Origin: a virus
Lineage: Duplodnaviria; Heunggongvirae; Uroviricota; Caudoviricetes
Length of the DNA: 64,000 nt
IMG/VR virus record: IMGVR_UViG_3300038492_000258
Span: 44,995 to 108,994 of that record
Reading direction: 5' to 3' (one strand)
Position 1 is the stretch's first letter. Each line of letters opens with the position of its first letter. Below, piece after piece: positions 12,099-56,746 of this stretch. Position numbers and translations under genes: made by a program. The notes under the pieces are model-generated. The model did not search any database and was not told the origin of the DNA. It saw nothing but the letters and a program-made list of their open reading frames with translations.

Positions 12099-15000
12099 TT
12101 ACCCCGGTTGTCCAAAGGAACTCAGTAGTCCACGTTCACGTAATACAGTAAAGACCGCTTCTAACTGCTCAGTAATAGCATCCAGTTGCGAAGTCGTTTG
12201 TTCATCAGCAGATGCCGAGATAGTATCTCTAATTTCATCAACCAGGCTATCTAGACCAGTAACAGTAATGGTCTGGTTTTGATTGGTGTCAAGTTGAATG
12301 CTAACATTCTCACCTGTTGTCGGGCTCGAAGCAGCAGTATCAGTATCGGTCAACGATGCGGTTTGGGTTTGAATTGCCGTATTGCTTAGGGCGATGTCAT
12401 TCAATTCACCACGCACACTTTCCAGTGTATTCACGACACGTTCCAGAATTTCGTCCGTACTCTCTGAGCCACCAGTTTCCAGTTGCGAAAGAGCCTGAGT
12501 AACAGAACGAGCAATAGCGGCAACAACAGTTTCGTTAATGCCACGAACTGCATCGATACCTGCGGCAATCGGACTACCGTCTTGGAAGTTAGGAACAAAA
12601 CCAAATTTACGCATCGGAATAATGGCTTCACTCGTATTTGCCACTGCTAATCCAGCACCAGCAGGCATTGCGTTCTTTTCACGCTGAGCCGCACGTAATA
12701 AACCAGCCGCCTCACTAGGTGTTAAATTACCTCCAGCAAAGTTAGGAATGTAACCAGCGTACAACGAACCAACCGCTGCCGCAGCTTCTAGTTGAGATAA
12801 ACGTGCTCCAATCACACTAGTAATACCATCAACAATGCTCTTACCAACGTCTCCGAACACCTTATTCTGTTCTGCAAACAGCTTAGCTTCACGCTCAATT
12901 TGCTTAAGTGTGTTTCTATCATCCGCAGCAATCACACGATTAGTCAACTCAATACGTTCTTGATTGGCTGCCTCAAGTACCGCAATTTCTTCGGCAATAC
13001 CTTCACGCACTAAACCAAGCTCTTCTCGTGCTCGCTCTTCTAGAATCTTAGCGGCCTCTAATTGCTCTTCAGCAATAGCAACCTGTTCTTGAGCTTGTTT
13101 AACTTGCTCAAAAGCAAGAGCAGCTTCCTGTTGAGACAAGCTTTGTAGAATCTGTAACTGTTCAACTTGTTGCGTTGTTAACTCTTCGAGCGAAGGCAGA
13201 CCAACCTCCGGAGCAACACCAGCACCAATCTGACCAATTGCTTTTTCTAACTGTTCAACGCTGAAACCACCAATGCTGGCAGAGTCAGGCAAGAACGATA
13301 AAGCGTCCAGAATCTGTTGACGGAACTCAAGTGGTAAATTCAGTAACTCCTTACTAAGAGAATCAAGCTCACCGCCACTCAAGCCCAAGAAGTTCTCAAA
13401 CGAACCACCGAGCTTCTCTGCAATAAATGCCAGGCCATCAATACCTTGCTGAAGAGCCGCGTTCTCTTCGGCACTCTGTCCAAAGATACCTAAGCCAGCC
13501 TGCGTGATTTGAGACTCAGCCTCCTGCAAGAAAGCTAATGTTTCGTTAGCAAGTTGTCGCTCAAGTGCAATGCGTTGTTCTAAACTAATATTAGCGTCGC
13601 CGAGTGCATCCGTGAAAGCAGCTTCTAAGCTCGCCAATCTTCCAGAAAAGGTAGAAATACCACCTGTTAAAATAGCAATATCTCTATTGATAAGATTAGT
13701 AGTAATCTCAGCTTCGGTTACGGCACCATTGAAGTCAAGAATCGCACCTTGCAAGTTCGCAAATGCGTTCGCCAGATTCTCTGTAGCGTCTAGAGTTTCC
13801 TGCTGAGCACTCTTCAAATTACTCTGTGCGTCTGCCTCTAAATCCGCTAAGTCTGCACGACGACTATCTGCAAACTCTTCAAAGCTTTGCTTACTTTCTT
13901 CTAGAGCGTCATTAAGAGAATCTGTTGCGTCTTCCAATTCTTGCAGCAGTTTTAGTCGCTTCTCTTCTGCTTTACGAGCCTCTTCAGCAGCTTTAGCTTC
14001 TTCTTGAGCAACCTTGATGCGTCCCTTAATAGTATTGATCACACCTTCTCGCTGGAGGTTTTCAATCTCTAGTTGTTTAGCACTCATCTTGAGCTGAAGC
14101 TCATTACGTACAAAAGCACCCTCAGTGCCTTCTGCTGCATTCTCAACCTTAGAGAATTCGTCTTGCAAATTAAATAACTCGTCGCGTAGTCTTTCAACGC
14201 GTACTGCTGTTTCTACAGAAGATTGTTGAAGGGCAATCTGTGCTTTCTCAACTTCCGTTAGATTAGCCAGCTTCTCAATGCTACTTAACGCATTTTCAGC
14301 GTTACCACCAAATTCAATAAGAGCAATCGCAAAATCGTCAGCAGCACGTCCAGCTTCTAAGCTAGCCGCCTGCTGTGCTTGAGCTAATTCTTTTTCTCTA
14401 TCAAGAATACTTTGACGTAATGTCTGTGTAGCAGTCAAACGATCAATCTCAGCCTGCTTAGCGTCCCCCTCAATAGCGATAACTTTACTTACAAAATCAC
14501 GCTCAGATGCCAACACACTATTATTGATACGCTCTAGTTCTTGAACAAGGGCATCACCTTCTTTGGCGAATGCAGAACGCACTTCGCCTAGTAAGGAAAT
14601 TGCACGACCCGGACCAATACCCGCCTCAGGAGCTTCGCTTTCCAGTAACGACTGACGTAAGTCATTGAAGCCCTTTTGTGCAACTAAGAAAGCTTGATCA
14701 GCACGCTCAGCCTCTACTCGTAAACGATCAATACCTTGAGCAAGATTCTCTGGTAACGTACGTGCATCCGCCAACGAAGCGTTCAGCGTAGTAAATCGAC
14801 TAGCTGCTTCAGCAAAATTCTTGATGTCTTCGAAAGCAGGAGCAAACGTTTCTTTCAGCAGACCAGTCGTTTCATCGATCTGCTTATCAACAACACCGAA
14901 GGCACGCAACAAGATTCTACTGCGTTCCGCAAGACTTAGTGTGCTATCACCATTCTCATCATAAGCGTCTTTCAATTCCTGAGCGGCTTCTGCGTTAGCA

Positions 15001-17192
15001 AACAATTCATTGTTAAGTTTAGCAATATTGCGGTTACCCTCATCACTAAACAACGCACGCTGTAACTTGCCAGTGTCTAAACCAGTAGCACCCAAGCTCT
15101 CAAAATCTTCAAGTAGTTTATCAAATGCCCCAGTAACATCTACGTCACCAAACTCTTGTTCGTTAAGGCTGCTTGATAGGTTTTCGGCAATAATTTGTCC
15201 TAACGAACCCGAGAGATCAGTAATTGCACCCTGAATCTTGGCTTCATCAAATTCAAGACCAACAAGCTCTTTGATGGCATCCGACTGTTCTTTCTGACGA
15301 TCAACCGTATCACTAATGACACTACCCAATGTGGCTAACGTACCAGCCACTAATCCAGCTTTAGCACCCAAGATACCAAATTGTAAACCAGTCTGAAGGC
15401 CAAAACCAGCCGCCTTACGGAAGTTGTCACCAATTTCAAATGCGGCAGGCACGATTGAATCAAACGCACTGGTCAGACCATTAAGTACTGGCACAGCCGC
15501 GATAGAAGCAGCAGTAAATGCTAACAACTGAACTCGGCTATCTCCAATAGCAGCTTGCCACTTATTGTTAGCTTGAATCGACTTTTCAACCGAAAGACGT
15601 TGACGTGTACGATCCTTGAAGTCATCTCGACCAACAGCGGTCTGCAAACGACGTGCAGACGGACGATCCTCTAGTACACGAACACCATTCTTTCTGATAA
15701 GTAATTGCTGATTGAATAATTGAAGTCCACGAGTCGCTTGATCCGTAGCCGTCTGCATTTGGATAAGCTCTTGAGAAGTCTTCTGAACACCAGGAATTGC
15801 CGGGAGCCCACCCTTACCGCCTTTGCCTCCAGCACCGCCACCACCGACGCCGCCAAATCCACCAAGACCAAACACAGCTCTACCTAACCGAATACCACCA
15901 ATAGCAAGTAGTGGAGCAACCGAAACACCAATCTTATCAAAGATCTGTACTAGTTTAGTAGCAACGCCAACAAGCACTCTAGCGGAACCAACGGCACCCT
16001 TAAGAACATCACCAATACCAGCATCACCAATCGCTTGAGCAAGTCCTTGAGAAGCCGTTGTTAATTGTGTAAGCTGGAACTCAAGCGACTCAGCAATGAC
16101 CGCCTGCTTAGCTTTTGCAGCACCATCTGCATTAGAGGCAGCAGCGGATAATTCTGTTGCACGATCAAAAGACTTGATAACACCAAGGAAAGATTCAAAC
16201 TGACGAACACCAGCAATAGACTTAGCCGCATTAGCCTGTTCTGCTTCCGTTAAGTTATTGAACGCATTTTCTAGGTCGCCCAAAACATCGATAAGGGGAC
16301 GAAGGCTACCATCTAAATTTTTGACTTCAACACCCAATGCACGAACAGCCTGCTGTGGCTCACCAGCAGCAGTGATTCGAGTGGACAGAGTTTTGAAGAA
16401 CGTACCAACTTCTCGACCAGACTTACGTGTCTGCTCTCTAAGGGCAGCAATCAAACCAATAGTGTCATCCACACTTTTTGTAGCGAAAGCAAGAGCGTTA
16501 CCACCAGTACGGAAAGCTTCAGCAATATCCTGGGCACCAGCCGCAGCAAGGTCTTCTACTTTTACAACCTTATCGAGAGCAGACTCAAGGTCACCAGCTT
16601 GATCACCGAAAATCTGTGTTAATGCAACAACAAACTCTTGCGACTCAGCAAGATCAAGTGTCGAAGTTCTAGCAGCAAGCGTGGACACACGAGCCTGTTC
16701 GAACGCCTCTTCAATCGTAGCACCAGCTTGCTTGAATAGACGAATACCTTGAACAACCTCAGTGGCAGTAGAACCAAATTCAGTACCAATCTTAAGAGCC
16801 TGATCAGCAATCGCACCAAACGAATCCGCAAGACCATCAATATCAAGAGCCTGAATTTTACGAATCTCTGCTTCAAAATCAACTAAGAATCTAACACCAC
16901 CCTGCAAAGCTCTATTTAGGGTAGCGAACGTCGGCAGCAAGATAGCAAACTGTGCCATACGCTGCAAGAATTGACGTGCAGCACGTTCACCATTTGTCAG
17001 TTCAGTCTTAACGTCACGTACACCACGACCAAGCCTACGCATACCTGTGTTAGCTTTGGTAGCTGCACGTCCTGTGTCAGCCAAAGCTCCGGGCAGACCG
17101 GCAGTAGCACGACTAATCTGAGTAAACACACTCCGATCAATCTGTACACCAGTAAGCTTTAAAATAGCTTCTAATTGAACTGTATTAGCCAT
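12099..17192 (-). CDS. Tape measure protein (TP901/PhageMin_Tail-type core)
   Basis: 1697 aa, Ala/Leu/Glu-rich helical; core DFEAEIRKI...FGSTATEV...LDKVVKV...DIAEAF...IGLIAAL...GREVGTFFKTL; C-terminal GYIPNFAGG. Confidence 0.93.
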   Translation of the reverse strand: MANTVQLEAILKLTGVQIDRSVFTQISRATAGLPGALADTGRAATKANTGMRRLGRGVRDVKTELTNGERAARQFLQRMAQFAILLPTFATLNRALQGGVRFLVDFEAEIRKIQALDIDGLADSFGAIADQALKIGTEFGSTATEVVQGIRLFKQAGATIEEAFEQARVSTLAARTSTLDLAESQEFVVALTQIFGDQAGDLESALDKVVKVEDLAAAGAQDIAEAFRTGGNALAFATKSVDDTIGLIAALREQTRKSGREVGTFFKTLSTRITAAGEPQQAVRALGVEVKNLDGSLRPLIDVLGDLENAFNNLTEAEQANAAKSIAGVRQFESFLGVIKSFDRATELSAAASNADGAAKAKQAVIAESLEFQLTQLTTASQGLAQAIGDAGIGDVLKGAVGSARVLVGVATKLVQIFDKIGVSVAPLLAIGGIRLGRAVFGLGGFGGVGGGGAGGKGGKGGLPAIPGVQKTSQELIQMQTATDQATRGLQLFNQQLLIRKNGVRVLEDRPSARRLQTAVGRDDFKDRTRQRLSVEKSIQANNKWQAAIGDSRVQLLAFTAASIAAVPVLNGLTSAFDSIVPAAFEIGDNFRKAAGFGLQTGLQFGILGAKAGLVAGTLATLGSVISDTVDRQKEQSDAIKELVGLEFDEAKIQGAITDLSGSLGQIIAENLSSSLNEQEFGDVDVTGAFDKLLEDFESLGATGLDTGKLQRALFSDEGNRNIAKLNNELFANAEAAQELKDAYDENGDSTLSLAERSRILLRAFGVVDKQIDETTGLLKETFAPAFEDIKNFAEAASRFTTLNASLADARTLPENLAQGIDRLRVEAERADQAFLVAQKGFNDLRQSLLESEAPEAGIGPGRAISLLGEVRSAFAKEGDALVQELERINNSVLASERDFVSKVIAIEGDAKQAEIDRLTATQTLRQSILDREKELAQAQQAASLEAGRAADDFAIALIEFGGNAENALSSIEKLANLTEVEKAQIALQQSSVETAVRVERLRDELFNLQDEFSKVENAAEGTEGAFVRNELQLKMSAKQLEIENLQREGVINTIKGRIKVAQEEAKAAEEARKAEEKRLKLLQELEDATDSLNDALEESKQSFEEFADSRRADLADLEADAQSNLKSAQQETLDATENLANAFANLQGAILDFNGAVTEAEITTNLINRDIAILTGGISTFSGRLASLEAAFTDALGDANISLEQRIALERQLANETLAFLQEAESQITQAGLGIFGQSAEENAALQQGIDGLAFIAEKLGGSFENFLGLSGGELDSLSKELLNLPLEFRQQILDALSFLPDSASIGGFSVEQLEKAIGQIGAGVAPEVGLPSLEELTTQQVEQLQILQSLSQQEAALAFEQVKQAQEQVAIAEEQLEAAKILEERAREELGLVREGIAEEIAVLEAANQERIELTNRVIAADDRNTLKQIEREAKLFAEQNKVFGDVGKSIVDGITSVIGARLSQLEAAAAVGSLYAGYIPNFAGGNLTPSEAAGLLRAAQREKNAMPAGAGLAVANTSEAIIPMRKFGFVPNFQDGSPIAAGIDAVRGINETVVAAIARSVTQALSQLETGGSESTDEILERVVNTLESVRGELNDIALSNTAIQTQTASLTDTDTAASSPTTGENVSIQLDTNQNQTITVTGLDSLVDEIRDTISASADEQTTSQLDAITEQLEAVFTVLRERGLLSSFGQPG

Positions 17193-41035: not shown

Positions 41036-41710
41036 ATGAAGAAAGCGTTTATTGCCCTCTGTTTGCTGGTCGCCTCATGCTGTGCCCCGCCTGAGGTGGG
41101 AACCGAAGTGGCAACGCCTGTTGCACCTGATGAGGTTGCATCTGGCCCGAATTCTCTTCCGATGGAAGATGAATTTATGGTACGCGTGAATATGGCAGTG
41201 CTAGATTCGTATGAAGATGACTATCCTGTTATGTATCAGGCTCTTATGGATGCCATTCAAGAATGGAGCGGCTATCTACCGGTAGAGTTTGGCGTGTATA
41301 AAATTGGTCCGAAGTCGGGTGCTTTTATGCCACTGGGAACTACACGCGTCCAAATGTTTGATTTTCATGATGAACCAGACGACAACAAAATCGATTACGT
41401 CGGTCTTTTTAGTTTTGCTGAGAATGCGTTACGATTAGATGTCGCCGACCTTCAGGGAGATTATGACAGATCTCGTGCAGTAATTTTACACGAGATGGGT
41501 CACATGTTTGGACTGTCGCATGTTTACGGTCAAAATGATAGAATGGCAAGAACTGGCGATATTCGGCTTGACATTCCGACCGCAAAGGGGTATATAATGT
41601 TTTACTCCTCTGCCGATGGTGTAGATCCAGGTCAGAAAAAATTGTCCGAGCTTGAGATTAAGCTAGCCAGAGATTACATTTTAAACATCCTAAGGACACC
41701 GAACCATTAA
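41036..41710 (+). CDS. Lipoprotein-like Zn metalloprotease (metzincin/matrixin)
   Basis: Signal MKKAFIALCLLVASC; HEMGHMFGLSH (HExxHxxGxxH); Met-turn YIMF; SD AAGGAG. Confidence 0.88.
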   Translation: MKKAFIALCLLVASCCAPPEVGTEVATPVAPDEVASGPNSLPMEDEFMVRVNMAVLDSYEDDYPVMYQALMDAIQEWSGYLPVEFGVYKIGPKSGAFMPLGTTRVQMFDFHDEPDDNKIDYVGLFSFAENALRLDVADLQGDYDRSRAVILHEMGHMFGLSHVYGQNDRMARTGDIRLDIPTAKGYIMFYSSADGVDPGQKKLSELEIKLARDYILNILRTPNH

Positions 41711-46853: not shown

Positions 46854-47461
46854 GCTACTACTTTATTAATGCTGACGAGAAGGTCTGGTGTGGATCAGAT
46901 CGAGACTATGCTCTAGAACATAGTCATACTGTTTGGCAACAGGGGGCTGTTATTGGTAAAGATTCTCATGGCGACGATATTTATGAATGGCTTTTGTTAA
47001 AAACAAAATGGCCTGGATACGAAGAATATGCTTGGTGGGAACCAAATAGAGAATCTAAGCCGTGGACGCTTTGGAACGGTCTGGTTGTTGATGTGACGGA
47101 AATTAGGGGCATTGATGCTGGACCTCCGCATAACATGCAGGGGCCAATCCTGTTAGGGGCTATCGAACCTAAAGAAGAATCTCCTTTTAACCTCAATGAA
47201 ATCGAAAACTTAGTCAAGCAAAAACAGCAAGCGTTTAATTACAAAGATCAATTAGAAAAAGAAATTGCTAACCAGAACCCCCTCAGGGGTTATGCGTTGG
47301 AGCCCTCTGAAATAGAAAAAAGAATAGAGGCGGCTCAGGCGAAAGCAGAACGAACGGCGGCTCGCGAAAAAGCGTTATACGAGAATTTAATTAAAAGTCA
47401 CGCAGACAAAGAATCGATTCAAAAAGCAATTATGGATCATTTGAATAGTCTCGAATATTAA
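46850..47461 (+). CDS. Hypothetical protein (203 aa, C-terminal coiled coil)
   Basis: ORF track; coupled. Confidence 0.65.
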   Translation: MSYYFINADEKVWCGSDRDYALEHSHTVWQQGAVIGKDSHGDDIYEWLLLKTKWPGYEEYAWWEPNRESKPWTLWNGLVVDVTEIRGIDAGPPHNMQGPILLGAIEPKEESPFNLNEIENLVKQKQQAFNYKDQLEKEIANQNPLRGYALEPSEIEKRIEAAQAKAERTAAREKALYENLIKSHADKESIQKAIMDHLNSLEY

Positions 47462-47463
47462 TA

Positions 47464-48378
47464 ATGAAAACTTTAGTTCGCACAGTATTTGGTTCGGAAC
47501 TATATGGCACCAGCACGCCCGCAAGTGACCGTGACGAAAAAGGGGTGTTCATGCCAGATACTCGCGATATTTTACTTGGCAGAATCCCCAAAACGGCCAA
47601 TTTGTCGGTGAAGGATGACACTCGACGCAACTCCCCCGGCGAACTGGACGGCGACATGTACAGTCTCCATCATTTTGTTAAATTGGCGTGCCAGGGGCAA
47701 ACGGTCGCCATCGACATGCTCTGGACTCCAAGGGAAATGATCTTGGAAGATTCAGAGACTTGGAATGAGCTAATTTCTCTACGAGAAAAGTTTTTGTCTA
47801 AAAACATGAAGGCGTTCGTGGGTTATGCACGGGCACAGGCTGCGAAGTATAGCTTAAAGGGCGATCGTCTAACTAAATTGCGAGAGTTTTTAGCTGTGCT
47901 AAAAAATAGCGATCCTAGTGACTGCCTTGCACATGTTTGGGATAAGTTGCCCCAAGACGACGAGCGTGAAGGACCGCATTGTACAGAACTACAAATTGCG
48001 GGTAAGTGGTTTGGTAGAACCACACGTATCGATCACGTCAAAGAATCTGTAGAAAGCTTGATTGCACGATACGGCAAGCGTGCTAATGCTGCGGCTACGG
48101 CCGATGGTCGTGATTGGAAAGCACTAAGTCATGCTTTGCGGGTGAGTCTAGAACTTAAGGAGCTTTTGCAAACAAAACGCTTACGATTCCCGCTGTATGA
48201 TGCTGATACCTTAACTGCAATTAAAACAGGCGTATACGAGCTATCGGAAGTACAGCGGCTCATCGATCATACGCTTGAAGAAATTGAGACACTTATGGAG
48301 TCCAGTAATTTGCCCGAAAAGGTAGATTACAAATTCTGGGATGACTGGTTGTTTGAAAAAACAAAAAGAATGCTATAA
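47464..48378 (+). CDS. Pol-beta superfamily nucleotidyltransferase (T4 NrdC.11-like)
   Basis: FGSELYGTSTPASDRDEKGVFMP (GS..G...SD.D); helical C-terminus WKALSHALR. Confidence 0.85.
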   Translation: MKTLVRTVFGSELYGTSTPASDRDEKGVFMPDTRDILLGRIPKTANLSVKDDTRRNSPGELDGDMYSLHHFVKLACQGQTVAIDMLWTPREMILEDSETWNELISLREKFLSKNMKAFVGYARAQAAKYSLKGDRLTKLREFLAVLKNSDPSDCLAHVWDKLPQDDEREGPHCTELQIAGKWFGRTTRIDHVKESVESLIARYGKRANAAATADGRDWKALSHALRVSLELKELLQTKRLRFPLYDADTLTAIKTGVYELSEVQRLIDHTLEEIETLMESSNLPEKVDYKFWDDWLFEKTKRML

Positions 48379-48589
48379 TATTCTGCTAAAGTGGGAACGC
48401 CAAGCGATTCTAAAAACACTGCATATTACTTGGGAAGCCATCCCGAGTTGGATGGACTGGGAGTGGTGCAATACTCTTCCTATGACATGGGATAATCCGT
48501 GGCACTTGCTTTATAGTGTACTAAATGGATATCCACCTCCCGGTTATCGACCCATTTTTATTGGTATAAAGGCAAATCATGAAGAATAA
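48341..48589 (+). CDS. Trp-rich hypothetical protein (start uncertain)
   Basis: ORF track fills the gap. Confidence 0.4.
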   Translation: MTGCLKKQKECYNILLKWERQAILKTLHITWEAIPSWMDWEWCNTLPMTWDNPWHLLYSVLNGYPPPGYRPIFIGIKANHEE

Positions 48590-49148
48590 TGTACAATTGC
48601 AGCCTGGGGATATCTTCTTGACCAGAGGTCAAGGTTGGCTTAGCAAAGCTATTCGTCGCTTCACAACGACTTTCGGCGAGAGCCGAAGTAAAGTTAATCA
48701 CGTCGGTATTATTACGACCGAAGGCGACCTTTCGACGGCTGCTGCTGTCGAAGCGTTGCATACAGTTAAGCGACATACACTTATGGAAGAGTATGGTGGA
48801 ACTAACCAGGAAGTAGCCATTTATCGGCCAGTCAACTTGACGCCTGCGGAATTAGAGGCTATTGTTAAACGTGCTGAAGGATACGTAGGACAGAGCTACG
48901 GTTATCTCAAGATCTTTACGCATCTCATGGATTGGTGTCTTTGTGGAGCTTATCTGTTTAGACGACTGACTGCGTCAGATCGATATCCGATCTGTTCTTG
49001 GTTAGTTGCACACGCATATCTCGCGGCAGGAAAAGATTTCGGGGTTGATGCGGGAGCAGCAAGCCCTGATGATATTTGGGATTTTGTAACGCACAGAGGA
49101 CACAGAAGGTATTACCGATGCGTAAGACGACTATCAAAACTATCTTGA
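48579..49148 (+). CDS. Permuted papain-like amidase (YaeF/YiiX, NlpC/P60 superfamily)
   Basis: LQPGDIFL, NHVGI (His) before GQSY and ICSWLVAHAY (Cys), SPDDI. Confidence 0.85.
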   Translation: MKNNVQLQPGDIFLTRGQGWLSKAIRRFTTTFGESRSKVNHVGIITTEGDLSTAAAVEALHTVKRHTLMEEYGGTNQEVAIYRPVNLTPAELEAIVKRAEGYVGQSYGYLKIFTHLMDWCLCGAYLFRRLTASDRYPICSWLVAHAYLAAGKDFGVDAGAASPDDIWDFVTHRGHRRYYRCVRRLSKLS

Positions 49149-49227
49149 ATGCATATCGCATTATATATGCAATTTCCCCAAAAGGACGTTCGGCTCAATA
49201 TTACATTGAAGGGGCAAAAAGCTTACT

Positions 49228-49596
49228 ATGAAGCTTGTTGATATCTTAGCATCGTTTCGCGAACAGGTTAGTGAAGCTCTCACTGACAATCATAATGCGT
49301 TTGGATATATTGCAAGTAATAATCCAGACACTCGTATCGTGCTCTTCGATGTAAACGATCGTAAAACCTTTGCGATTTGCGATATTGTGATTACAAAAGA
49401 ATGTCGTGTTGTTAAGAATCGTTGGGGTGTTATTGATCACAACGAACCATTGCCGCTAAAACAAGGTGACGGTAGCAGCGACTATGGTGGATATTACAGT
49501 ATTCCACAAGAGGTTCTAGAAGGCAAAGAGTGGAAGCCTGTTCACAAAGGCAAAAGATGGATTTCGAGATCTAATGTCCAAATACTACATAAGTAG
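49228..49596 (+). CDS. KGxRWI-array ORF 1 (122 aa)
   Basis: Ends ...HKGKRWISRSNVQILHK. Confidence 0.75.
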   Translation: MKLVDILASFREQVSEALTDNHNAFGYIASNNPDTRIVLFDVNDRKTFAICDIVITKECRVVKNRWGVIDHNEPLPLKQGDGSSDYGGYYSIPQEVLEGKEWKPVHKGKRWISRSNVQILHK

Positions 49597-49825
49597 ACAA
49601 ATGGGAAAACCTGAACCGAACATGGGACCCGGAGAATGGCACTCGGCTTCGAAGGGTATCCTGAAGATTAAAGATATGGCTCAACACCATATTCTTAATG
49701 CTATTAAGAAGATCAAACGTGAGGGTTGGCGGGAAGACAAGTTACTAGAACTAGAAAACGAGTTGCGGCTTCGCCGCAAACCTGATGTTACTAAAGGACA
49801 ACGGTGGATCAGAAAACGTTCGTAG
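49574..49825 (+). CDS. KGxRWI-array ORF 2 (83 aa)
   Basis: Ends ...TKGQRWIRKRS. Confidence 0.75.
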   Translation: MSKYYISRQMGKPEPNMGPGEWHSASKGILKIKDMAQHHILNAIKKIKREGWREDKLLELENELRLRRKPDVTKGQRWIRKRS

Positions 49826-49971
49826 ACAGCTTCTCTAAACTCGGACATTTTATCGACTTTACTACACAAAGTGTAAAGACACTTAATGAAACTATTAAGG
49901 TCACCGTCTCGCATATCAGCAAATTCCGCCACCGGAAGGGAAGACGATGGATAACGAAGAAGACAGATTAA
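49804..49971 (+). CDS. KGxRWI-array ORF 3 (55 aa, not in ORF track)
   Basis: GTG start inside the previous motif; MDQKTFVDSF...HRKGRRWITKKTD. Confidence 0.7.
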   Translation: MDQKTFVDSFSKLGHFIDFTTQSVKTLNETIKVTVSHISKFRHRKGRRWITKKTD

Positions 49972-50147
49972 TTGGTATGGATAATGTCGTTATTCCATAT
50001 GAGGGCCAGTCTTTGTGGGGTGATCTGGAAGATATCATTAAGAAAAATTTTGTTCCCAAAATCGACACTGCTCCCGAGCAATTCATTAAAGGAATAGTGA
50101 AACACAAGAAAGGTCGGAGATGGATCGAGAAGAGGACTTCACAATAG
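49947..50147 (+). CDS. KGxRWI-array ORF 4 (66 aa)
   Basis: Starts MD inside the previous motif; ends KKGRRWIEKRTSQ. Confidence 0.7.
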   Translation: MDNEEDRLIGMDNVVIPYEGQSLWGDLEDIIKKNFVPKIDTAPEQFIKGIVKHKKGRRWIEKRTSQ

Positions 50148-50323
50148 ACGACATATCAACCAGCGGATCATTTTCATATGGCGGTGCTGTTCAAGACGCT
50201 CATGGTATGTGGAACTTTCCTATTCAGGCAAGCGGCATGATCATGATTAATGACATGTATATGCCTCCTCAGCACACTAAAGGACGACGTTGGATTACGA
50301 AAGATGAAACTGAAAGAAGCTAG
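50120..50323 (+). CDS. KGxRWI-array ORF 5 (67 aa)
   Basis: Starts MD inside the previous motif; ends TKGRRWITKDETERS. Confidence 0.7.
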   Translation: MDREEDFTIDDISTSGSFSYGGAVQDAHGMWNFPIQASGMIMINDMYMPPQHTKGRRWITKDETERS

Positions 50324-50582
50324 AGTTTTATCGATCTATGATACACACAAAGTTGTCTATGGCGAAATAGTAGATGATTTAATTAGAGCCGACAGGCTCT
50401 ATCATCATGTACCAGATAGCCTAAACACGCCCGAGGATTACGACACACTCGCGGAAGCGATGTCTATATATAAGAAATATGAAATCCACCAAAAGATTTG
50501 GGGCGAAACAGTTGACCCAAAACAATTTGTGATCAAAGGCAAACGATGGATACCCTTGAACCCAGAAATTACGACGGCGTAG
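50304..50582 (+). CDS. KGxRWI-array ORF 6 (92 aa)
   Basis: ATG 50304 (MKLKEAR); ends IKGKRWIPLNPEITTA. Confidence 0.7.
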   Translation: MKLKEARVLSIYDTHKVVYGEIVDDLIRADRLYHHVPDSLNTPEDYDTLAEAMSIYKKYEIHQKIWGETVDPKQFVIKGKRWIPLNPEITTA

Positions 50583-50917
50583 GATATCGAGCAATCACTG
50601 ATATTGACGCTTTAATATTACTGGCGGTTGATCCAAGAGTAGTGTCTTTCTTAACGGAAGGAGTTAGGTCCAGCACGGCCCTTAATGAATCGCGTGTTCT
50701 GGCTAGCAGGTTTTACAAAGCAGGATACGACCCCAACGATTTTGTGCAATTATTGCGTGCTTTACACCGCATAGTGAGCGAAAGCGATGACGCTGTGCCT
50801 GCGGGACAAATTGTTACTATGATGAAACGCTTTGCTAGATATTATCATCATAACACAGTTATGAAGGGTAGGCGATGGATTTATGCATCGCAAGGAACTT
50901 GCGATGCAGAAGTATAA
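50546..50917 (+). CDS. KGxRWI-array ORF 7 (123 aa)
   Basis: Starts MD inside the previous motif; ends MKGRRWIYASQGTCDAEV. Confidence 0.75.
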   Translation: MDTLEPRNYDGVGYRAITDIDALILLAVDPRVVSFLTEGVRSSTALNESRVLASRFYKAGYDPNDFVQLLRALHRIVSESDDAVPAGQIVTMMKRFARYYHHNTVMKGRRWIYASQGTCDAEV

Positions 50918-51227
50918 CGGTTACCACAATCCGAACGATCTAACTCCGTTTGACACGGAAATAACGGAAGATGACCTGAATAGACTGAAGCATGCGAAAA
51001 ATGATCCTATGGGAGGTATCAGAGTTACTCTAGACTTCTTAGAAAGAGTAAATTACGACCCGAATGACTATTTAGATGTCGTACGCAATCTACTTAAACG
51101 AGAAACGGGTTCAAGTGACATTGCGGAAGAGACGAAGAGATTTATTCTGAAAAGAACTTTGGATGTAAAAGCTAGGGGCTACGCCCCTAGGAAGGGTCGT
51201 CGATGGATCTTGAAAAGTTCGCAATAA
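50883..51227 (+). CDS. KGxRWI-array ORF 8 (start 50883 or 50904)
   Basis: Ends RKGRRWILKSSQ; shares YDPND with ORF 7. Confidence 0.75.
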   Translation: MHRKELAMQKYNGYHNPNDLTPFDTEITEDDLNRLKHAKNDPMGGIRVTLDFLERVNYDPNDYLDVVRNLLKRETGSSDIAEETKRFILKRTLDVKARGYAPRKGRRWILKSSQ

Positions 51228-51430
51228 CACCAGATGCAGACGATGACACGGGTCATAGGGTATATTATCAAACTACAGGCGGCCAATGGCGATGGTTAAT
51301 CCTCACACATAGAGGAGTATGGACTGCATTAATGGCCCTATTATCAAGCGAATTCTCGCAAGAGAGTGTACACCCCATTTATATAGAATTCCGAAATGAA
51401 GACTTCGAACTCAAAGATATTTGTCGCTAG
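51203..51430 (+). CDS. Small W-x-A-[ILV] family paralogue 1
   Basis: Starts MD inside the last KGxRWI; contains GVWTALMALL...IYIEF. Confidence 0.65.
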   Translation: MDLEKFAITPDADDDTGHRVYYQTTGGQWRWLILTHRGVWTALMALLSSEFSQESVHPIYIEFRNEDFELKDICR

Positions 51431-52043
51431 CGATACCCATTTTGGGCACGCCAATATTATTAAGTATTGCGAAAGGCCGTTTGCAGACGCCCGCAAGATG
51501 GACGACGCACTTCTTAATTCTTTTTCCCAGCGGCTTGATAGCGAAGCTATCCTTTATTTCCTAGGAGATCTTACCTTCGCCCCCGATTGGCGAGAGCAAG
51601 AGATCTTGCGAGAACTTTCTGGCATGTGCCGGAAAATCTTCATCCTAAAGGGAAACCATGATACTCCAAGCAAATGGGGCAAGGGTGTCGAAGAAAACGT
51701 TCGCGTTGCGAACACTGAGAATATTAAAGTAATAGATAAGGACATTCACGCTATTCAGCATGAAGGCAAGAAAATTGTGATGTGCCATTATGCGATCACA
51801 GATTGGGATGGCAAATTCCATGGGAGCATTCACCTTCACGGCCATTCCCATGGCCGTGTTGTGAAGGAAGTTCCGACAGAGAAAGATGTTCACTGGGCCA
51901 CTTACGCCAACGGAATTATGGGGCGATCGACCGTTCCTTTTATTGATAATCGTTATGACGTTGGCGTCGATATGTACGGTGGTCCTGTTCTTCTGACGGG
52001 AGATTTGCGGTATATCAATAATCCGAAGGGTTGGGATGTATGA
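51396..52043 (+). CDS. Calcineurin-like metallophosphoesterase
   Basis: SDTHFGH, LGDL, GNHD, CHY, HLHGHSH, DVGVD. Confidence 0.93.
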   Translation: MKTSNSKIFVASDTHFGHANIIKYCERPFADARKMDDALLNSFSQRLDSEAILYFLGDLTFAPDWREQEILRELSGMCRKIFILKGNHDTPSKWGKGVEENVRVANTENIKVIDKDIHAIQHEGKKIVMCHYAITDWDGKFHGSIHLHGHSHGRVVKEVPTEKDVHWATYANGIMGRSTVPFIDNRYDVGVDMYGGPVLLTGDLRYINNPKGWDV

Positions 52044-52251
52044 GTTGAAAATCATCGAAGATAGAGAATTGGATCTTGGTGGTCATCGCTATCTGTATAG
52101 TGCGGTTATTAAAACGCCGTGTTTGAAATATCAATCTACTATGTGTTATAGTTGGTGGGACGCTGTCTTACTTGCTCTTCGAGATGAGGTTCTTCTGGAG
52201 GAACTGGGCTCTCGTCCAGTTAGTGTCAGATTTGAATACTTTGATGCTTAA
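52036..52251 (+). CDS. Small W-x-A-[ILV] family paralogue 2
   Basis: SWWDAVLLAL...PVSVRF. Confidence 0.65.
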   Translation: MYELKIIEDRELDLGGHRYLYSAVIKTPCLKYQSTMCYSWWDAVLLALRDEVLLEELGSRPVSVRFEYFDA

Positions 52252-52438
52252 CGCTACACGTTACACGAAGAGTGACGGTACACCATATTATTACACTCGT
52301 GTTGAGGCCCCTGAAGGCCATTCTTATGGCGGCAATTCGTTTGGTAACGTGTGGGAGTCAATTGGCGAGCTAATTGATGACATTTTACCACTGACATATT
52401 CAGACTATGTAATATATGTATCCTTTAACGCTTGTTAG
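52244..52438 (+). CDS. Small W-x-A-[ILV] family paralogue 3 (ATG 52244)
   Basis: NVWESIGELI...VIYVSF. Confidence 0.65.
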   Translation: MLNATRYTKSDGTPYYYTRVEAPEGHSYGGNSFGNVWESIGELIDDILPLTYSDYVIYVSFNAC

Positions 52439-52619
52439 ACAATATACAGAAAACTTTGCTGGTTCTCTTGCGACAGCGTTCGTTGTCTCTCACGAGGCAG
52501 GAATCAGTCCACGTTTTCTATCACCATGGACTGCGATAGGTGAAGTCTTGCGGAATTATGAATGGCAAATTGGCGATACGCCTTGTGTTATTAAAGAAAC
52601 TGAGTGTCATGTGGCGTAA
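52416..52619 (+). CDS. Small W-x-A-[ILV] family paralogue 4
   Basis: SPWTAIGEVLRNY...CVI. Confidence 0.65.
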   Translation: MYPLTLVRQYTENFAGSLATAFVVSHEAGISPRFLSPWTAIGEVLRNYEWQIGDTPCVIKETECHVA

Positions 52620-52849
52620 TGATTGAATACGATTGCCCGGTCGTCCTGATGGACGACGAATTGTTTGGAATGTACCATTTTATAGCGTTGCCCCCGTTGG
52701 GTTCAACGCTAAAACTGATGAATACGACTGGTAATGGTGTTTGTGCTGAGTTAAAGGTGCGAGATATCATTTTCTCTGGTGGTCACAGAACAAAACTGAG
52801 AATAAAAGTAGAATTAGTTAAGTATATTGACAAAAAGGAAACGGAATGA
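52604..52849 (+). CDS. Hypothetical protein (81 aa)
   Basis: ORF track; coupled. Confidence 0.55.
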   Translation: MSCGVMIEYDCPVVLMDDELFGMYHFIALPPLGSTLKLMNTTGNGVCAELKVRDIIFSGGHRTKLRIKVELVKYIDKKETE

Positions 52850-53064
52850 AGAATCCTGACAGTAAGCCGCTTCGTATTGTGCGGCATGGTAGATCGTGGT
52901 CGCAAGACCCTAAAGTCTATACAGATGCTTTGGCACAACTGGCGACAGCCGAAGCGATTTTGGTGCGGGCAGGTAAATCATCTGCGATGCCACACTTTAT
53001 TGCAATCGTGAAAGAATTAGAGAACGTTCTAGGCTTCAAATTCGAACAAATTCCGGAGGAATAG
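52846..53064 (+). CDS. Hypothetical protein (72 aa)
   Basis: ATGA overlap; SD AAGGA. Confidence 0.6.
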   Translation: MKNPDSKPLRIVRHGRSWSQDPKVYTDALAQLATAEAILVRAGKSSAMPHFIAIVKELENVLGFKFEQIPEE

Positions 53065-53066
53065 CA

Positions 53067-53285
53067 TTGGAAGTTGAAATTACTAATCCAAAATTCAAGT
53101 TTGTTCTCGAAGAGAACGAGATTTTCGAAGCACTCCGATTATACTTGGTAACTAAGGGGCAGGCTGTTCCTAAAGAAGCTATCAATCTTACGTTCTCTGC
53201 TGGTGGCGGCCGAAAGTTAACTGGCGTGTTTATGTTTGAACTTCCGTTGACGACTTCGAAAGAGGAAGACGATTGCCCGTTTTAA
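53067..53285 (+). CDS. Hypothetical protein (72 aa)
   Basis: TTG start with GGAGG SD. Confidence 0.6.
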   Translation: MEVEITNPKFKFVLEENEIFEALRLYLVTKGQAVPKEAINLTFSAGGGRKLTGVFMFELPLTTSKEEDDCPF

Positions 53286-53461
53286 TCGTATTTCATAATT
53301 TTGCGTGTGGTAATTATTGGGTGGCGTACGAAGATGGTGATTTTAAAGGGTCTATGGAAACGACCGCCGGTGATTTTTGGGATGCCGTTCATATCGGCTT
53401 ACTAGAGTTCGACCACCTTTTGGGAGACGTAATTTATGTCAACGACGACTGTCGTGATTAG
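53273..53461 (+). CDS. Small W-x-A-[ILV] family paralogue 5
   Basis: DFWDAVHIGL...GDVIYV. Confidence 0.65.
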   Translation: MPVLIVFHNFACGNYWVAYEDGDFKGSMETTAGDFWDAVHIGLLEFDHLLGDVIYVNDDCRD

Positions 53462-53624
53462 CAAGGATTTTACGGAATGGCGAGCGGCTATTCTTGATTG
53501 GAATGGGGTGGAATCACATCGTTCTGGGCGTCGGATAGATGGGCCGTGGCAGGCCGTCAGTCATTTAATGACATTGTATCCTTTGTATCTAAAAGACGTC
53601 ATTCAGTTGCGATTCAAAAAATGA
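53436..53624 (+). CDS. Small W-x-A-[ILV] family paralogue 6
   Basis: GPWQAVSHLMTLY...DVIQLRF. Confidence 0.65.
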   Translation: MSTTTVVISKDFTEWRAAILDWNGVESHRSGRRIDGPWQAVSHLMTLYPLYLKDVIQLRFKK

Positions 53625-53827
53625 CGACTCTTACGATAGGCCGCGATGCAGATAATAAGTGGGTTTTGTCTTTTCCGGCTCCAGAATACGCTATAGATCC
53701 AAAAGAAAATTGGACCACAAGTAGCTATGAACTTTGGCGATGTATTGGATTCGCTACTCAATTATACGGCGAACATATGGATAGAGTTGTGCATATTAAG
53801 CTTGAAGATGACAATCATAACCCTTAA
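53621..53827 (+). CDS. Small W-x-A-[ILV] family paralogue 7 (ATG 53621)
   Basis: ELWRCIGFATQLY...RVVHIKL. Confidence 0.65.
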   Translation: MTTLTIGRDADNKWVLSFPAPEYAIDPKENWTTSSYELWRCIGFATQLYGEHMDRVVHIKLEDDNHNP

Positions 53828-54014
53828 ACGCGAAGAATTATGGTGGAACGCATCCATTGATGGACCACAAAATAGTGTTTTTGATGCATGGGGAGCAAGT
53901 GCTCAGGAACCCTGGAAAGCAATTGGGAATGTGTTATCCTTATATTGCACGCATCTAGGTGGTGTTGTTAGCATTCAGTTGGACAGCAAAGCTGCTGAGG
54001 AAGAGGGCGTCTGA
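53808..54014 (+). CDS. Small W-x-A-[ILV] family paralogue 8 (ATG 53808)
   Basis: EPWKAIGNVLSLY...GVVSIQL. Confidence 0.65.
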   Translation: MTIITLKREELWWNASIDGPQNSVFDAWGASAQEPWKAIGNVLSLYCTHLGGVVSIQLDSKAAEEEGV

Positions 54015-54081
54015 AAATGGGTCCCGTGTGGTTTTACACCACCTGGCAACATTTCTCTTACATAACGGTACCTTTACAATG

Positions 54082-54122
54082 AAAAAACCCCCACCCCGGG
54101 AAGATTTTTCCCGAAGCGGAGG
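54082..54122 (-). terminator. Rho-independent terminator ending the minus-strand early block
   Basis: CCTCCGCTTCGGGAA-AAATC-TTCCCGGGGTGGGGG plus T6 (G-U pairs favour the minus strand); at the convergent junction. Confidence 0.75.
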
Positions 54123-54171
54123 CTATGTAAATATCTCGTATGAAAGCGTCTTTTACAATTCTTTTACTTGA

Positions 54172-54462
54172 CTAATCTTCCTCTCTCAATTCTCCTGTGA
54201 AAAGTTTTCGTCCCTTGCTCTCTTCCATGGGTGAATATCCTTCGCATACATGTGTTGCGTCTTTGTATGCTAGGGTAATTGTTTCCCTATACTCACCCTG
54301 TACATAGGTGGCACTACGTAGCACCCCTTCCCCTACATGGGAATTTTCTTCATGCCCTGCCCTACAGCGTGCATCGAAAAAACTTTCCGCATCAGTGTAC
54401 AGGGAAAATTCTTCCAGTACGTGCGTACCGCTGTCGGTTGTGTGTCGTGTTACTTGGAACAT
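54172..54462 (-). CDS. Hypothetical early protein (96 aa)
   Basis: ORF track; leaderless promoter upstream. Confidence 0.65.
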   Translation of the reverse strand: MFQVTRHTTDSGTHVLEEFSLYTDAESFFDARCRAGHEENSHVGEGVLRSATYVQGEYRETITLAYKDATHVCEGYSPMEESKGRKLFTGELREED

Positions 54463-54467
54463 GGTAC

Positions 54468-54496
54468 ACTATACCCTAGTGGCCTAGATTTGTCAA
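54468..54496 (-). promoter_or_regulatory. Sigma70 promoter TTGACA-N17-TATAGT, leaderless
   Basis: ATG 5 nt after the -10 box. Confidence 0.7.
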
Positions 54497-54499
54497 TTC

Positions 54500-55030
54500 C
54501 TATTTGCAGAAAATCGCATCCATCTCGGCCAGGGAGCGGGCACGCTTGCTAGCCTTGCTCTCCCCCTCTAGCTCTAGCTCATGCGTAGGCTCACCCTGTA
54601 GGCGAAGGGTGCGGGGATCGTAGCTCGCCAGTTTGACACGGCGGGAAAGAGCGGCTTGGGCATTCTGGCGGGCTTGGTATTCGTGGCGTTCCATCTTAGT
54701 AGGCTCCCTTTGGGTTCGCCTACTAGAGCGGGGAATTTCGTAGATCCGAACGTTTGGTTTTGTAAATTCGTATTTACGTTCGTTCGCCTCTAGCAACCAG
54801 GAAAAAATTTCCTGTTGAAATTCGCAGTCTAGGGGATAGACTTTATGCGGAACATATTTCCAGAATTCATTTCCACCTAGGGCTAGCCTACGGCCTACGT
54901 ATGGGGTGGATTGTGCCACTACGTACCCATAGGAAATTCTTACCCAATCTGTCCCTATGTAGATTGTTCCACATAGAGAGGGACACTGTAGCAGGGAAAC
55001 TAGTTCCTCTAGATTGTCTCCCCGAATCAT
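54500..55030 (-). CDS. Hypothetical early protein (176 aa)
   Basis: ORF track; ATGA coupling to the upstream mini-ORF. Confidence 0.65.
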   Translation of the reverse strand: MIRGDNLEELVSLLQCPSLCGTIYIGTDWVRISYGYVVAQSTPYVGRRLALGGNEFWKYVPHKVYPLDCEFQQEIFSWLLEANERKYEFTKPNVRIYEIPRSSRRTQREPTKMERHEYQARQNAQAALSRRVKLASYDPRTLRLQGEPTHELELEGESKASKRARSLAEMDAIFCK

Positions 55031-55176
55031 GCCTTAGGGAAAATCTTTCCTACTAAGTAGCCTACGTGCCAGGCAATAGCCCCTAGTGTATGCGTAGCGT
55101 AGCAATTGCGGGCCCATCCTGGGGCGTATGCATCGCCCCTACCGAACCCGTACCAGCGTACTAGCGTTTCCCTCAC
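55027..55176 (-). CDS. Small hypothetical protein (49 aa, not in track)
   Basis: GTG start overlapping the upstream TGA and TGA overlapping the downstream ATG; MRETLVRWYGF...GKIFPKA. Confidence 0.55.
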   Translation of the reverse strand: MRETLVRWYGFGRGDAYAPGWARNCYATHTLGAIAWHVGYLVGKIFPKA

Positions 55177-55316
55177 TTGCTAAGCCCCACGGACGCGTAG
55201 GCGGCGTTATGGTTCGCTTGGAAGTCCTGGAAGGCCGAAGCGGCTTTCGGAATCGCGACACAAGCGACGGCCAGGGCGATCGAAGCGAGGATGAGGTACG
55301 TTTTTCCGTTCTTCAT
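55173..55316 (-). CDS. Small signal-peptide/membrane protein (47 aa, not in track)
   Basis: MKNGKTYLILASIALAVACVAIPKAASA...; ATG 8 nt after a TATACT. Confidence 0.6.
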   Translation of the reverse strand: MKNGKTYLILASIALAVACVAIPKAASAFQDFQANHNAAYASVGLSK

Positions 55317-55324
55317 TATGTCCT

Positions 55325-55352
55325 AGTATACCCCATTTCGCCCGAGATGCAA
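55325..55352 (-). promoter_or_regulatory. Sigma70 promoter TTGCAT-N16-TATACT, leaderless
   Basis: Direct sequence match. Confidence 0.65.
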
Positions 55353-55368
55353 ACGGAAATTCGATTTT

Positions 55369-55587
55369 CTAGGCTCGAATTGTTTTCGCTACGATTTTGT
55401 AGCTACCTTCGCCCGTGCGAAGAATTAGCCGCGAAGAATCTTCATGGACCACGTCAGGATTTTCCGTGTCGGAATCTTCTTCGCAGTGTACGCAAATTTC
55501 ATCCCCCTTGGGAATTAATTCGCAGCAGAAAACGCACTGTGAATAATCTTCGAGGCCCGGAAAAATATCATCGTAATCAGGATTCAT
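55369..55587 (-). CDS. Small Cys-rich (CxxC...CxxC) acidic protein
   Basis: CVFCCE...CVHC. Confidence 0.6.
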   Translation of the reverse strand: MNPDYDDIFPGLEDYSQCVFCCELIPKGDEICVHCEEDSDTENPDVVHEDSSRLILRTGEGSYKIVAKTIRA

Positions 55588-55786
55588 GGAAAATTCCTCG
55601 CCGTGTCATTTCTTCCCGGGCCGCCGCCGCATCGTCTGCCGCTTCCCTGCCCGTTACAGTATCGTTACCGTATCGCTCGGCCCGGTCGGATTCTCGCTCG
55701 TAAATATTTCGTAGCTGGGAATCCGTTGCCCCATGCACGAAATTCGCGAAATCAGGATCGCCGGAAAAATTTAACCGGAAATTCAT
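55577..55786 (-). CDS. Hypothetical protein (69 aa)
   Basis: ATGA coupling; GGAG SD. Confidence 0.6.
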   Translation of the reverse strand: MNFRLNFSGDPDFANFVHGATDSQLRNIYERESDRAERYGNDTVTGREAADDAAAAREEMTRRGIFHES

Positions 55787-56085
55787 TTCTCCTCCGGAGT
55801 AAATCTTTCCAGGTCATCCATAAGGCGAGCCATCGCGGCATCGTCTAGGCGGATCGGGTGCCGTTGCCCCTTTGCTTGGGGGCGTAGTTCTTTGGTCGGC
55901 TCGTTTTCGCGTTCCATGCCCCAAGATACCCCGCCCAGGGAGAAAGGCAAACGGAAACCGGGATTTCTCTTTTTGAAATGTTTTCGCTTGCCCGCAAACG
56001 TGCAATCGGCTAGTTTTTGCATGTCACATGGGCAGGAAATCTTTTCTTCTTTTTTACTCAGTCCTGACGTGGAACTTGCTTCCAC
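55783..56085 (-). CDS. Hypothetical protein (start uncertain)
   Basis: ORF track. Confidence 0.45.
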   Translation of the reverse strand: MEASSTSGLSKKEEKISCPCDMQKLADCTFAGKRKHFKKRNPGFRLPFSLGGVSWGMERENEPTKELRPQAKGQRHPIRLDDAAMARLMDDLERFTPEEK

Positions 56086-56280
56086 GTAGAAATTTTTTCC
56101 ACCTCGCCCACGCCCGCCCGCATACGTGTTAATTACACTGTAATAGCGTTTTAGGTGGCTCTAGCCATTTTTATGGCCCATTTTGGGCCATTTTTGCATT
56201 TTATACCACGAAAAGCCGCGAAATACCTCGAAAGTACATAGTTATGCCAAAATTCCGCTAATTTTGACCCTCCCCCATGT

Positions 56281-56517
56281 TTACCACGATTCTTGATCGT
56301 TGGTAAAATCAAACCCCGCAATATTTGCCAGAAAGAATGTCGTGGCGGAAGATTTTGGTTCCTTAGGGACAACCTGAATAAAGGTAATCTTTTCTTTATC
56401 CAGAACTACCGAATCCTCTTCCACATGGAAAAGAGTTTCCACACCAGAAACAAAGAAGATTTTAACACGGGTAGCCCGTTCGATCGTTCTACTTTTCGTG
56501 CCGTCGCGAAATTCCAT
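56281..56517 (-). CDS. Hypothetical protein (78 aa)
   Basis: ATG 8 nt after TATACT. Confidence 0.6.
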   Translation of the reverse strand: MEFRDGTKSRTIERATRVKIFFVSGVETLFHVEEDSVVLDKEKITFIQVVPKEPKSSATTFFLANIAGFDFTNDQESW

Positions 56518-56525
56518 AGTGCCTA

Positions 56526-56553
56526 AGTATACTAGATTCTACAGAGAATGCAA
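56526..56553 (-). promoter_or_regulatory. Sigma70 promoter TTGCAT-N16-TATACT, leaderless
   Basis: Spacer contains ATTCT-N4-AGAAT. Confidence 0.65.
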
Positions 56554-56746
56554 GTTAAATATAGGTTAACTTTTAACGGCTGTGTTTGGGGCAGTCCTAG
56601 AACGTTTTTCGCCCTCTCACAAGCTCTAGGATCGCCGCAAATAACGCCAATCGCTCTAACACACTGATACCAAACCACTTAGCAAAACGTCGCACTATAG
56701 CCCCTCTATAGGTCTCCTATTAGTCTGCTATAGGGTAGGATAGCTA

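Follow-up and report, generated by a model that had tools for sequence, protein, structure and literature searches.

Why do consecutive small genes of a phage end in the same short peptide, and why do the codons of this peptide contain the start of the following gene? The question is raised by an array of eight genes at positions 49228 to 51227 of a 64,000-nucleotide stretch of viral DNA, referred to here as the window (positions 44,995 to 108,994 of IMG/VR record IMGVR_UViG_3300038492_000258). The record, of which the window is a part, represents an uncultivated phage, has a length of 182,158 bp and a G+C content of 44.7%, and is 86% complete. Within the window the motif AARGGNNNNMGNTGGAT has 8 exact matches, all on the plus strand at 49546-51208 (starts at 49546, 49793, 49936, 50109, 50279, 50535, 50864 and 51192), compared with a mean of 0.03 in 100 dinucleotide-preserving shuffles, none of which reached 8. 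All eight copies read K-G-[KRQ]-R-W-I near the ends of eight consecutive open reading frames (ORFs) of 55-123 amino acids. In the whole genome 11 small proteins share this C-terminal K-G-[K/R/Q]-R-W-I tag, whose codons can contain the start of the next gene, and we consider it fairly probable that the tag acts as a lineage-private address or docking peptide. The array and the gene that follows it are composed as listed below.

49228..49596, plus strand: g1, 122 amino acids, tagged, no Pfam or PHROG family
49546..49563, plus strand: tag 1, KGKRWI (AAA GGC AAA AGA TGG ATT), end of g1
49574..49825, plus strand: g2, 83 amino acids, tagged
49793..49810, plus strand: tag 2, KGQRWI, end of g2; embedded GTG at 49804 is the start of g3
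49804..49971, plus strand: g3, 55 amino acids, tagged, GTG start within tag 2
49936..49953, plus strand: tag 3, KGRRWI, end of g3; embedded ATG at 49947 is the start of g4
49947..50147, plus strand: g4, 66 amino acids, tagged
50109..50126, plus strand: tag 4, KGRRWI, end of g4; embedded ATG at 50120 is the start of g5
50120..50323, plus strand: g5, 67 amino acids, tagged
50279..50296, plus strand: tag 5, KGRRWI, end of g5; embedded TTG at 50290
50304..50582, plus strand: g6, 92 amino acids, tagged
50535..50552, plus strand: tag 6, KGKRWI, end of g6; embedded ATG at 50546 is the start of g7
50546..50917, plus strand: g7, 123 amino acids, tagged, paralogue of g8
50864..50881, plus strand: tag 7, KGRRWI, end of g7; embedded ATG at 50875 is not the start of g8 (g8 starts at 50883, in another frame)
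50883..51227, plus strand: g8, 114 amino acids, tagged
51192..51209, plus strand: tag 8, KGRRWI, end of g8; embedded ATG at 51203 is the start of an untagged gene
51203..51430, plus strand: untagged gene of 75 amino acids, begins at the ATG within tag 8 and closes the chain; the gene call on a Logan contig agrees

Three more copies of the motif are located outside the array, at genome positions +151458, -25922 and -14291, each in frame and 2-5 residues before the stop codon of an ORF of about 100 amino acids. Two of these solitary genes lie within a conserved glycosyltransferase/methyltransferase module and the third among tRNA genes. In the whole genome the tag is thus in frame in 11/11 copies and is followed by 2-11 residues, mostly basic, before the stop codon; the net charge of tag plus tail is +1 to +5 in every one of the 11 proteins. 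An alignment of the 18 columns of the 11 copies revealed eight variable columns, exactly those in which K-G-x-R-W-I permits a choice of base; by placement alone, the chance of this is 1 in 43,758. Taken together, the copies make use of each of the four Gly and three Ile codons and of five of the six Arg codons, roughly at their genome-wide frequencies. Since the variation is confined to bases left free by the genetic code, selection on the peptide is indicated. When the first two bases of the Arg codon (MG) were relaxed to NN, no additional site was found in the whole genome; hence each element of the form Shine-Dalgarno (SD) sequence, spacer, start codon and GAT in this genome also encodes Arg. 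Furthermore, all tails after the tag comprise 11 codons or fewer, with a probability of about 0.003 given the rate at which the +1 frame closes at gene 5′ ends. This pattern argues that K-G-[K/R/Q]-R-W-I is maintained by purifying selection at the amino-acid level on 11 otherwise unrelated small proteins.

The bodies of the tagged proteins have little in common. In an all-against-all BLASTP comparison only g7 and g8 were alike beyond the motif (27% identity over 66 amino acids), and none of the tagged proteins matched a family in Pfam or PHROGs. For g7 and a solitary protein of 95 amino acids, no homologue outside their own genome was found among 5.8 billion proteins. The N-termini of g4 and g5 resemble each other (MDNEED at 49947-49964 and MDREED at 50120-50137) and g7 and g8 have a Y-D-P-N-D-[FY] core in common, from which it follows that parts of the array arose by duplication. 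Outside the window, an 87-codon ORF at genome position +135732 ends in K-K-Q-E-R-W-I-stop and may represent a degenerate twelfth tag.

The second part of the question concerns the DNA beneath the peptide. According to the sequence-only reading of the window, the -1 frame of every copy has a start codon (ATG, GTG or TTG) before GAT, and AARGG stands 6 nt upstream; this was seen in all eight array copies. The same reading had named five of the eight array junctions (49804, 49947, 50120, 50546 and 51203) as starts of the next ORF. These match exactly, and an independent gene call on the Logan contig of the same phage gave the same start for four of the five, leaving the 55-amino-acid ORF at 49804 uncalled; for the genes which do not use the embedded codon it gave the starts 49574, 50304 and 50883. 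At the five junctions the variable tail after R-W-I is indeed the next gene read out of frame, and the repeat spacing of 143-329 bp was reproduced. Only 0.6% of the off-frame start codons inside the genes of this genome open 55 codons or more, so that five out of eight is far from chance. Beyond the array, the conserved 242-amino-acid gene after the solitary copy at -14291 begins at the embedded ATG, its MDWTFGIIT aligning with MKWTFGIIT and MRWSFGIIT of relatives. It cannot be said that the tag forces Asp at position 2 of this protein, as this residue may be D, K, E or N across the wider family. For the gene that follows the copy at -25922, an ATGA overlap four codons downstream of the embedded codon is the more probable start, judging from its N-terminus (MNNVQQ, MNQQQ in relatives). 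At the copy at +151458 the embedded GTG is a dead end (GTG-GAT-TAA, genome position 151469).

The predicted pairing of the embedded sites with the anti-SD sequence has a mean of -5.2 kcal/mol, compared with a median of -4.7 for conserved genes and a mean of -1.55 for random sites. In 10 of the 11 genome copies the third base of the Arg codon before Trp is a purine, whereas 51% would be expected from codon usage (p about 0.007 by a binomial estimate); this bias speaks for some selection for ATG or GTG. The earlier statement that the base is never C is true of the array, but it is not significant alone, since CGC accounts for 13% of the Arg codons; the purine bias is. Taking codon choice as a guide, the synonymous sites of the tag appear tuned for a second reading as SD sequence and start codon. 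In the mechanism we propose, the AAR-GGN codons would provide an AAGG SD site, and the third base of Arg together with the TG of Trp would provide ATG or GTG. The next gene would then start inside the tag, 22-37 nt before the upstream stop codon, and would be translationally coupled to the upstream gene. The start region would come to lie beneath the tag codons because the genes are packed without spacers.

Two of the array junctions have an additional feature. At tag 1 the embedded ATG (49557) opens a mini-ORF of five codons whose TAA overlaps the ATG of g2 (TAATG, window 49557-49576). Similarly, the embedded TTG of tag 5 (50290) opens a five-codon mini-ORF whose TGA overlaps the ATG of g6 at 50304 (ATGA, window 50290-50307). 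In both cases the next gene is in the +1 frame. The mini-ORFs may serve as a re-initiation relay or may be due to chance; they are statistically not compelling, with an estimated chance of about 0.2-0.3 each. A programmed -1 frameshift joining the ORFs was considered and rejected, because the copies (AAAGGC, AAAGGA, AAGGGA and others) have no slippery heptamer X XXY YYZ in common.

Is such a tag restricted to this phage? A terminase search of IMG/VR delivered a small clade with records of 137-183 kb and a 91-kb fragment, nine of which were fetched whole. C-terminal motifs were compared in 10 related records including the present genome, using an unbiased search for words enriched in ORF tails. 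Enrichment was detected in two genomes only: here (K..RWI, 12 tails and no internal occurrence) and in IMGVR_UViG_3300032272_000002, hereafter G006 (F.L.GA, 22 tails and no internal occurrence). G006 is the closest relative, with a TerL 74% identical. KGRRWI is absent from it; in its place, F-x-[L/I]-x-G-[A/S/P]-L-stop closes 31 ORFs, and the synonymous variation of this ending is saturated. At 21 of these 31 junctions the next start overlaps the stop codon (ATGA, TAATG or GTGA). The invariant Gly at position -3 is encoded by GGA or GGG in 23/31 cases (27% expected), giving GGAG, the codon of the last Leu ends in A in 17/31 (p 0.003), and TGA is enriched. By these codon preferences, the G006 tag seems tuned for the start of the next gene as well. 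The tagged ORFs of G006 (for example at 3750-5107, 47128-56740 and 111089-111882) include a ParB-like protein of 286 amino acids and a weak OB-fold protein; many are located between tRNA genes, and the stretch at 3750-5107 is a head-to-tail chain of four or five.

Two positions allow a direct comparison of orthologues. In slot 1, between the genes of a 418-amino-acid glycosyltransferase and a 349-amino-acid protein, the present genome has a gene for 100 amino acids ending in GKGRRWIRR, and G006 has a homologue (29% identity over 65 amino acids) ending in FDLGGAL together with two more tagged genes. In slot 2, between the genes of a 227-amino-acid methyltransferase and a 242-amino-acid protein, a gene for 95 amino acids ending in KGRRWIGRLGS corresponds to a G006 homologue (27% over 81 amino acids, E 5e-6) ending in FNLDGAL. 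In more distant relatives the occupants of both slots, where present, are untagged. The replacement of one tag by an unrelated one on two pairs of syntenic orthologues between sister phages is thus documented. A profile search of 1.8 billion representatives with the slot-1 family found one further homologue, ending in FDLRGAL, on a 22-kb contig (L314, Logan SRR4039777). This contig belongs to a third phage, a member of the clade that comes from the study which also yielded the window, and its core proteins are 80-89% identical to those of G006. Its three slot genes have the same order and have kept their tags (FILEGAL, FELGGAL and FDLRGAL), with bodies only 48-54% identical to the G006 orthologues. 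The retention of the tags on such diverged bodies speaks for strong purifying selection on the second tag in fast-evolving proteins. L314 also encodes a bacterial-type DNA polymerase III alpha, a sigma-70 region 2 protein and the glycosyltransferase module, and differs from G006 by extra genes at 12848-13634 and 14712-15415, one of them tagged.

Further searches for either tag were largely negative. Eighty IMG/VR contigs were inspected around the gene of the neighbouring phosphoesterase and contained no tag there, the DNA motif was absent from five large relatives, and the 242-amino-acid family in IMG/VR gave no additional tagged upstream genes. The DNA pattern for FE[LI]GGAL matched only G006 and two small contigs in IMG/VR. 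The slot-1 homologue of an untagged relative (G001, L200:18937-19278) has an internal N-E-F-E-L-S-L-V at the place where the G006 protein ends in N-S-F-D-L-G-G-A-L, and this likeness points to an older internal sequence as a possible origin of the second tag.

What could such a peptide be for? In the reading that we prefer, the tag would be a lineage-private address or docking peptide by which one partner handles the tagged proteins as a group; the partner might be an assembly, a processing enzyme, or a hub of either phage or host origin. In the sister lineage, the unrelated F-x-[L/I]-x-G-A-L-COOH tag would serve the same purpose. This reading is suggested because unlike proteins carry one peptide, which is uniform within a genome, different between sisters and kept on diverging orthologues. 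It is possible, although rather doubtful, that the sister phages run private and interchangeable address-tag systems of this kind on 11-31 small proteins, each with its own reader, and that a tag could be acquired with a gene junction. If so, the fact that the tag DNA also carries the ribosome-binding site and start of the next gene would make the tag acquirable together with the junction, which would explain why unrelated genes share it. By position only, a candidate reader is encoded directly upstream of the array:

48579..49148, plus strand: permuted papain-like amidase, 189 amino acids, Pfam Peptidase_C92 (27.6 bits, cut-off 27)

This gene is private to the present genome, with no counterpart in the nine related phage records. 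Inspection by eye revealed His and Cys motifs (VNHVGI and ICSWLV). A complex prediction for the C92-like amidase and g3 had a score of 0.00, which counts neither way. Several observations weigh against the address reading. Only one genome is known to have the KGRRWI tag, and the collections searched contain no close relative of this array, so that the conservation of the tag through time is not directly visible. The genes private to both tagged phages encode methyltransferases, one glycosyltransferase-like protein, a phosphoesterase and small unknowns, with no obvious peptide-binding hub among them. Chemically the two tags are opposite, one basic-aromatic and the other acidic-hydrophobic, which is awkward for one co-evolving receptor and may point to different partners or functions. 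As for the second reading frame, Arg codons at the variable tag position likewise tend to end in a purine (6/7), and part of the third-base bias may reflect local composition.

Three other accounts take the tag for something else than an address. It could be a signal for timed proteolysis (a C-terminal degron), or the cleavage site of a dedicated peptidase such as the upstream C92-type amidase, whose lineage-specific gene abuts the array. Here the stretch after R-W-I differs between copies in both length and sequence, which would be expected if it is cut off, and the G006 tag always stands at the extreme C-terminus, where it has a small, hydrophobic end (G-A-L-COOH) after an often acidic run. 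Such an end resembles an ssrA-type ClpX signal. However, the free carboxylate is a feature of the G006 tag only, as KGRRWI is followed by 2-11 variable residues; moreover, neither tagged phage has a transfer-messenger RNA (tmRNA), no G006-specific peptidase was found near the G006 arrays, and untagged relatives have likewise kept the metallopeptidase-like gene at 41036-41710. We regard this explanation as unlikely. Even less probable is an arginine-rich RNA- or DNA-binding motif, a functional module rather than an address. The positive net charge of all 11 ends would fit, and the RGKGRRWIRR tail of the solitary protein at -25922 resembles the TAR-binding patch RGTRGKGRRIRR of bovine immunodeficiency virus (BIV) Tat (PMC4822317), but this likeness comprises a few residues of one copy, the orthologues of the sister phage bear an acidic-hydrophobic tag instead, and no repeated RNA element or Rfam family was found in or near the array. 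Finally, the peptide might be incidental and selection might act on an RNA initiation element comprising SD sequence, spacer, start codon and GAU. SD strength and spacing of the motif are typical of the genome, and the synonymous sites are biased to start and SD function. Against this, the MG of the Arg codon (MGN) and the AT of the Ile codon are invariant although they have no role in initiation, and the motif is kept where the embedded start is unused or a dead end (genome position 151469 and array junctions 1, 5 and 7). Asp is outside the eight most frequent second residues of the genes in this genome, and the sister tag keeps F, L, A and L, again without a role in initiation. Such a by-product therefore has hardly any probability left and is already contradicted by the pattern of variation.

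The sequence-only reading had gone further and taken the 18-bp unit as a site where recombination inserts or shuffles genes, each incoming gene gaining a start signal and a C-terminal tag. In favour of this, the tags stand exactly at gene junctions and bear the SD sequence and start of the next gene, and pre-existing conserved proteins have gained lineage-specific tags, for which the copying of a junction patch would be easier than 11-31 independent paths of point mutation. In addition, the assembly of one sequencing run (X2) breaks within window positions ~49677-49706, 51226-51255 and 52541-52570 with depth falling from 244 to 112, 72 and 60; the breaks at ~49706 and 51226, with their depth steps, flank most of the array. 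A precedent exists in the PeSLs (promoter early stem-loop elements) of T4-type phages, intergenic units of an early promoter and a stem-loop terminator which are conserved as DNA, recombine and form mini-circles (PMC2839356, PMC4122927). Like the motif described here, PeSLs are short repeats bounding small non-essential genes in variable regions, and they are the closest precedent for shuffling at repeated regulatory motifs (PMC2839356). Here, however, the motif is coding, varies synonymously and includes no promoter or terminator: promoter- and terminator-like sites in the array are not above shuffles and none is located at a junction. The copies differ at every synonymous position and their DNA similarity stops after ~17-21 nt, hence the copies as they now stand are no basis for homologous exchange. 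Neither a tyrosine nor a serine recombinase (PF00589, PF00239) was matched in the 86%-complete record, whereas control genomes gave matches. The junctions have no recurring inverted repeats or hairpins of attC type, so that neither IntI nor attC-like repeats, the components of integron-type arrays, were found. Three tagged genes are solitary, and the order of the slot genes is the same in G006 and L314, where a single indel (one tagged and one untagged gene) is not bounded by tags. The breaks in run X2 fall outside the motif, namely inside g2 and at or after the stop codon of g8, and a single contig of run X1 covers the whole region at a depth of 112; the X2 breaks may mark a co-occurring related phage which shares the left flank and differs from inside g2 onward. 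Insertion or shuffling of cassettes at the 18-bp junction is therefore unsupported, as the variation fits peptide selection, the similarity is short and some copies are solitary, and we consider it very unlikely. The cassette model may still account for the historical origin of the tags, although nothing measured supports it.

Unlike proteins with a terminal peptide in common are known from other systems. The internal proteins of T-even phages are diverse small proteins which a short capsid targeting sequence (CTS) directs to a common destination (PMC3012670). As in the present case, this peptide is the only part common to diverse small phage proteins, and the genes lie in clusters and are polymorphic. 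The CTS stands at the N-terminus and targets the scaffolding core, whereas the tag described here is C-terminal, has an unrelated sequence and has no known link to the capsid. Other examples are the C-terminal docking tails of replication proteins, namely the clamp-binding tails of T4 and the acidic tails ending in Phe of T7. There, too, several unlike proteins end in the same short, lineage-variable peptide, and the tails of T4 and T7 are each read by one hub. However, they are found on a handful of DNA-handling proteins, and not on 11-31 mostly unknown small proteins, some of them in a glycosyltransferase module. With regard to the second reading frame, stop/start overlaps such as ATGA and TAATG are used for translational coupling in bacterial and phage operons. 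They resemble the present junctions in that the downstream gene begins before the upstream one has ended, with the SD sequence provided by upstream codons. Here, in contrast, the start is located 22-37 nt upstream of the stop codon, at a fixed place within a conserved peptide motif, so that one sequence is constrained in two frames.

As to the genomic surroundings, the minus strand of the window encodes the terminase, the portal protein and other structural proteins at 1-40300, and the small plus-strand genes form a block starting at 41036. The first gene of this block (41036-41710, plus strand) has weak matches to zinc metallopeptidases of the HExxH type below the Pfam cut-offs and is kept in 8/9 related records, tagged or untagged. 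The major capsid protein could not be identified by sequence in the phage record. A blastn search of the array against cultured phages gave no match, and the TerL comparison with cultured phages found distant relatives only, with 28% identity or less, and no close one. Sequencing data holding the array were found in three DNA contig sets of one aquatic study, with no RNA data set listed; these contig sets do not differ from the window, and their array shows neither an indel nor a joint. An exact 39-mer taken from the left flank had no match in a metagenome scan.

A literature search for shared C-terminal tags on small phage proteins found nothing specific. Three aspects are contributed by the present case: two new tag sequences, the documented replacement of tags on syntenic orthologues, and clear evidence for the co-selection of the tag as ribosome-binding site and start of the next gene. 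The overlap is a clean natural example of one sequence selected in two reading frames, and it is a warning to annotators that a conserved "junction repeat" can be a peptide motif. For the majority of small early or accessory genes in phages the function is not known, and a shared tag implies a common partner or destination; about a dozen unknowns are thereby turned into one tractable question, that of finding the reader. The tag could also be used as a portable handle for pull-downs or for the targeting of foreign proteins. Tag replacement on orthologues between sister phages is unusual, and it suggests that protein addressing in these phages is fast-evolving and private to each lineage.

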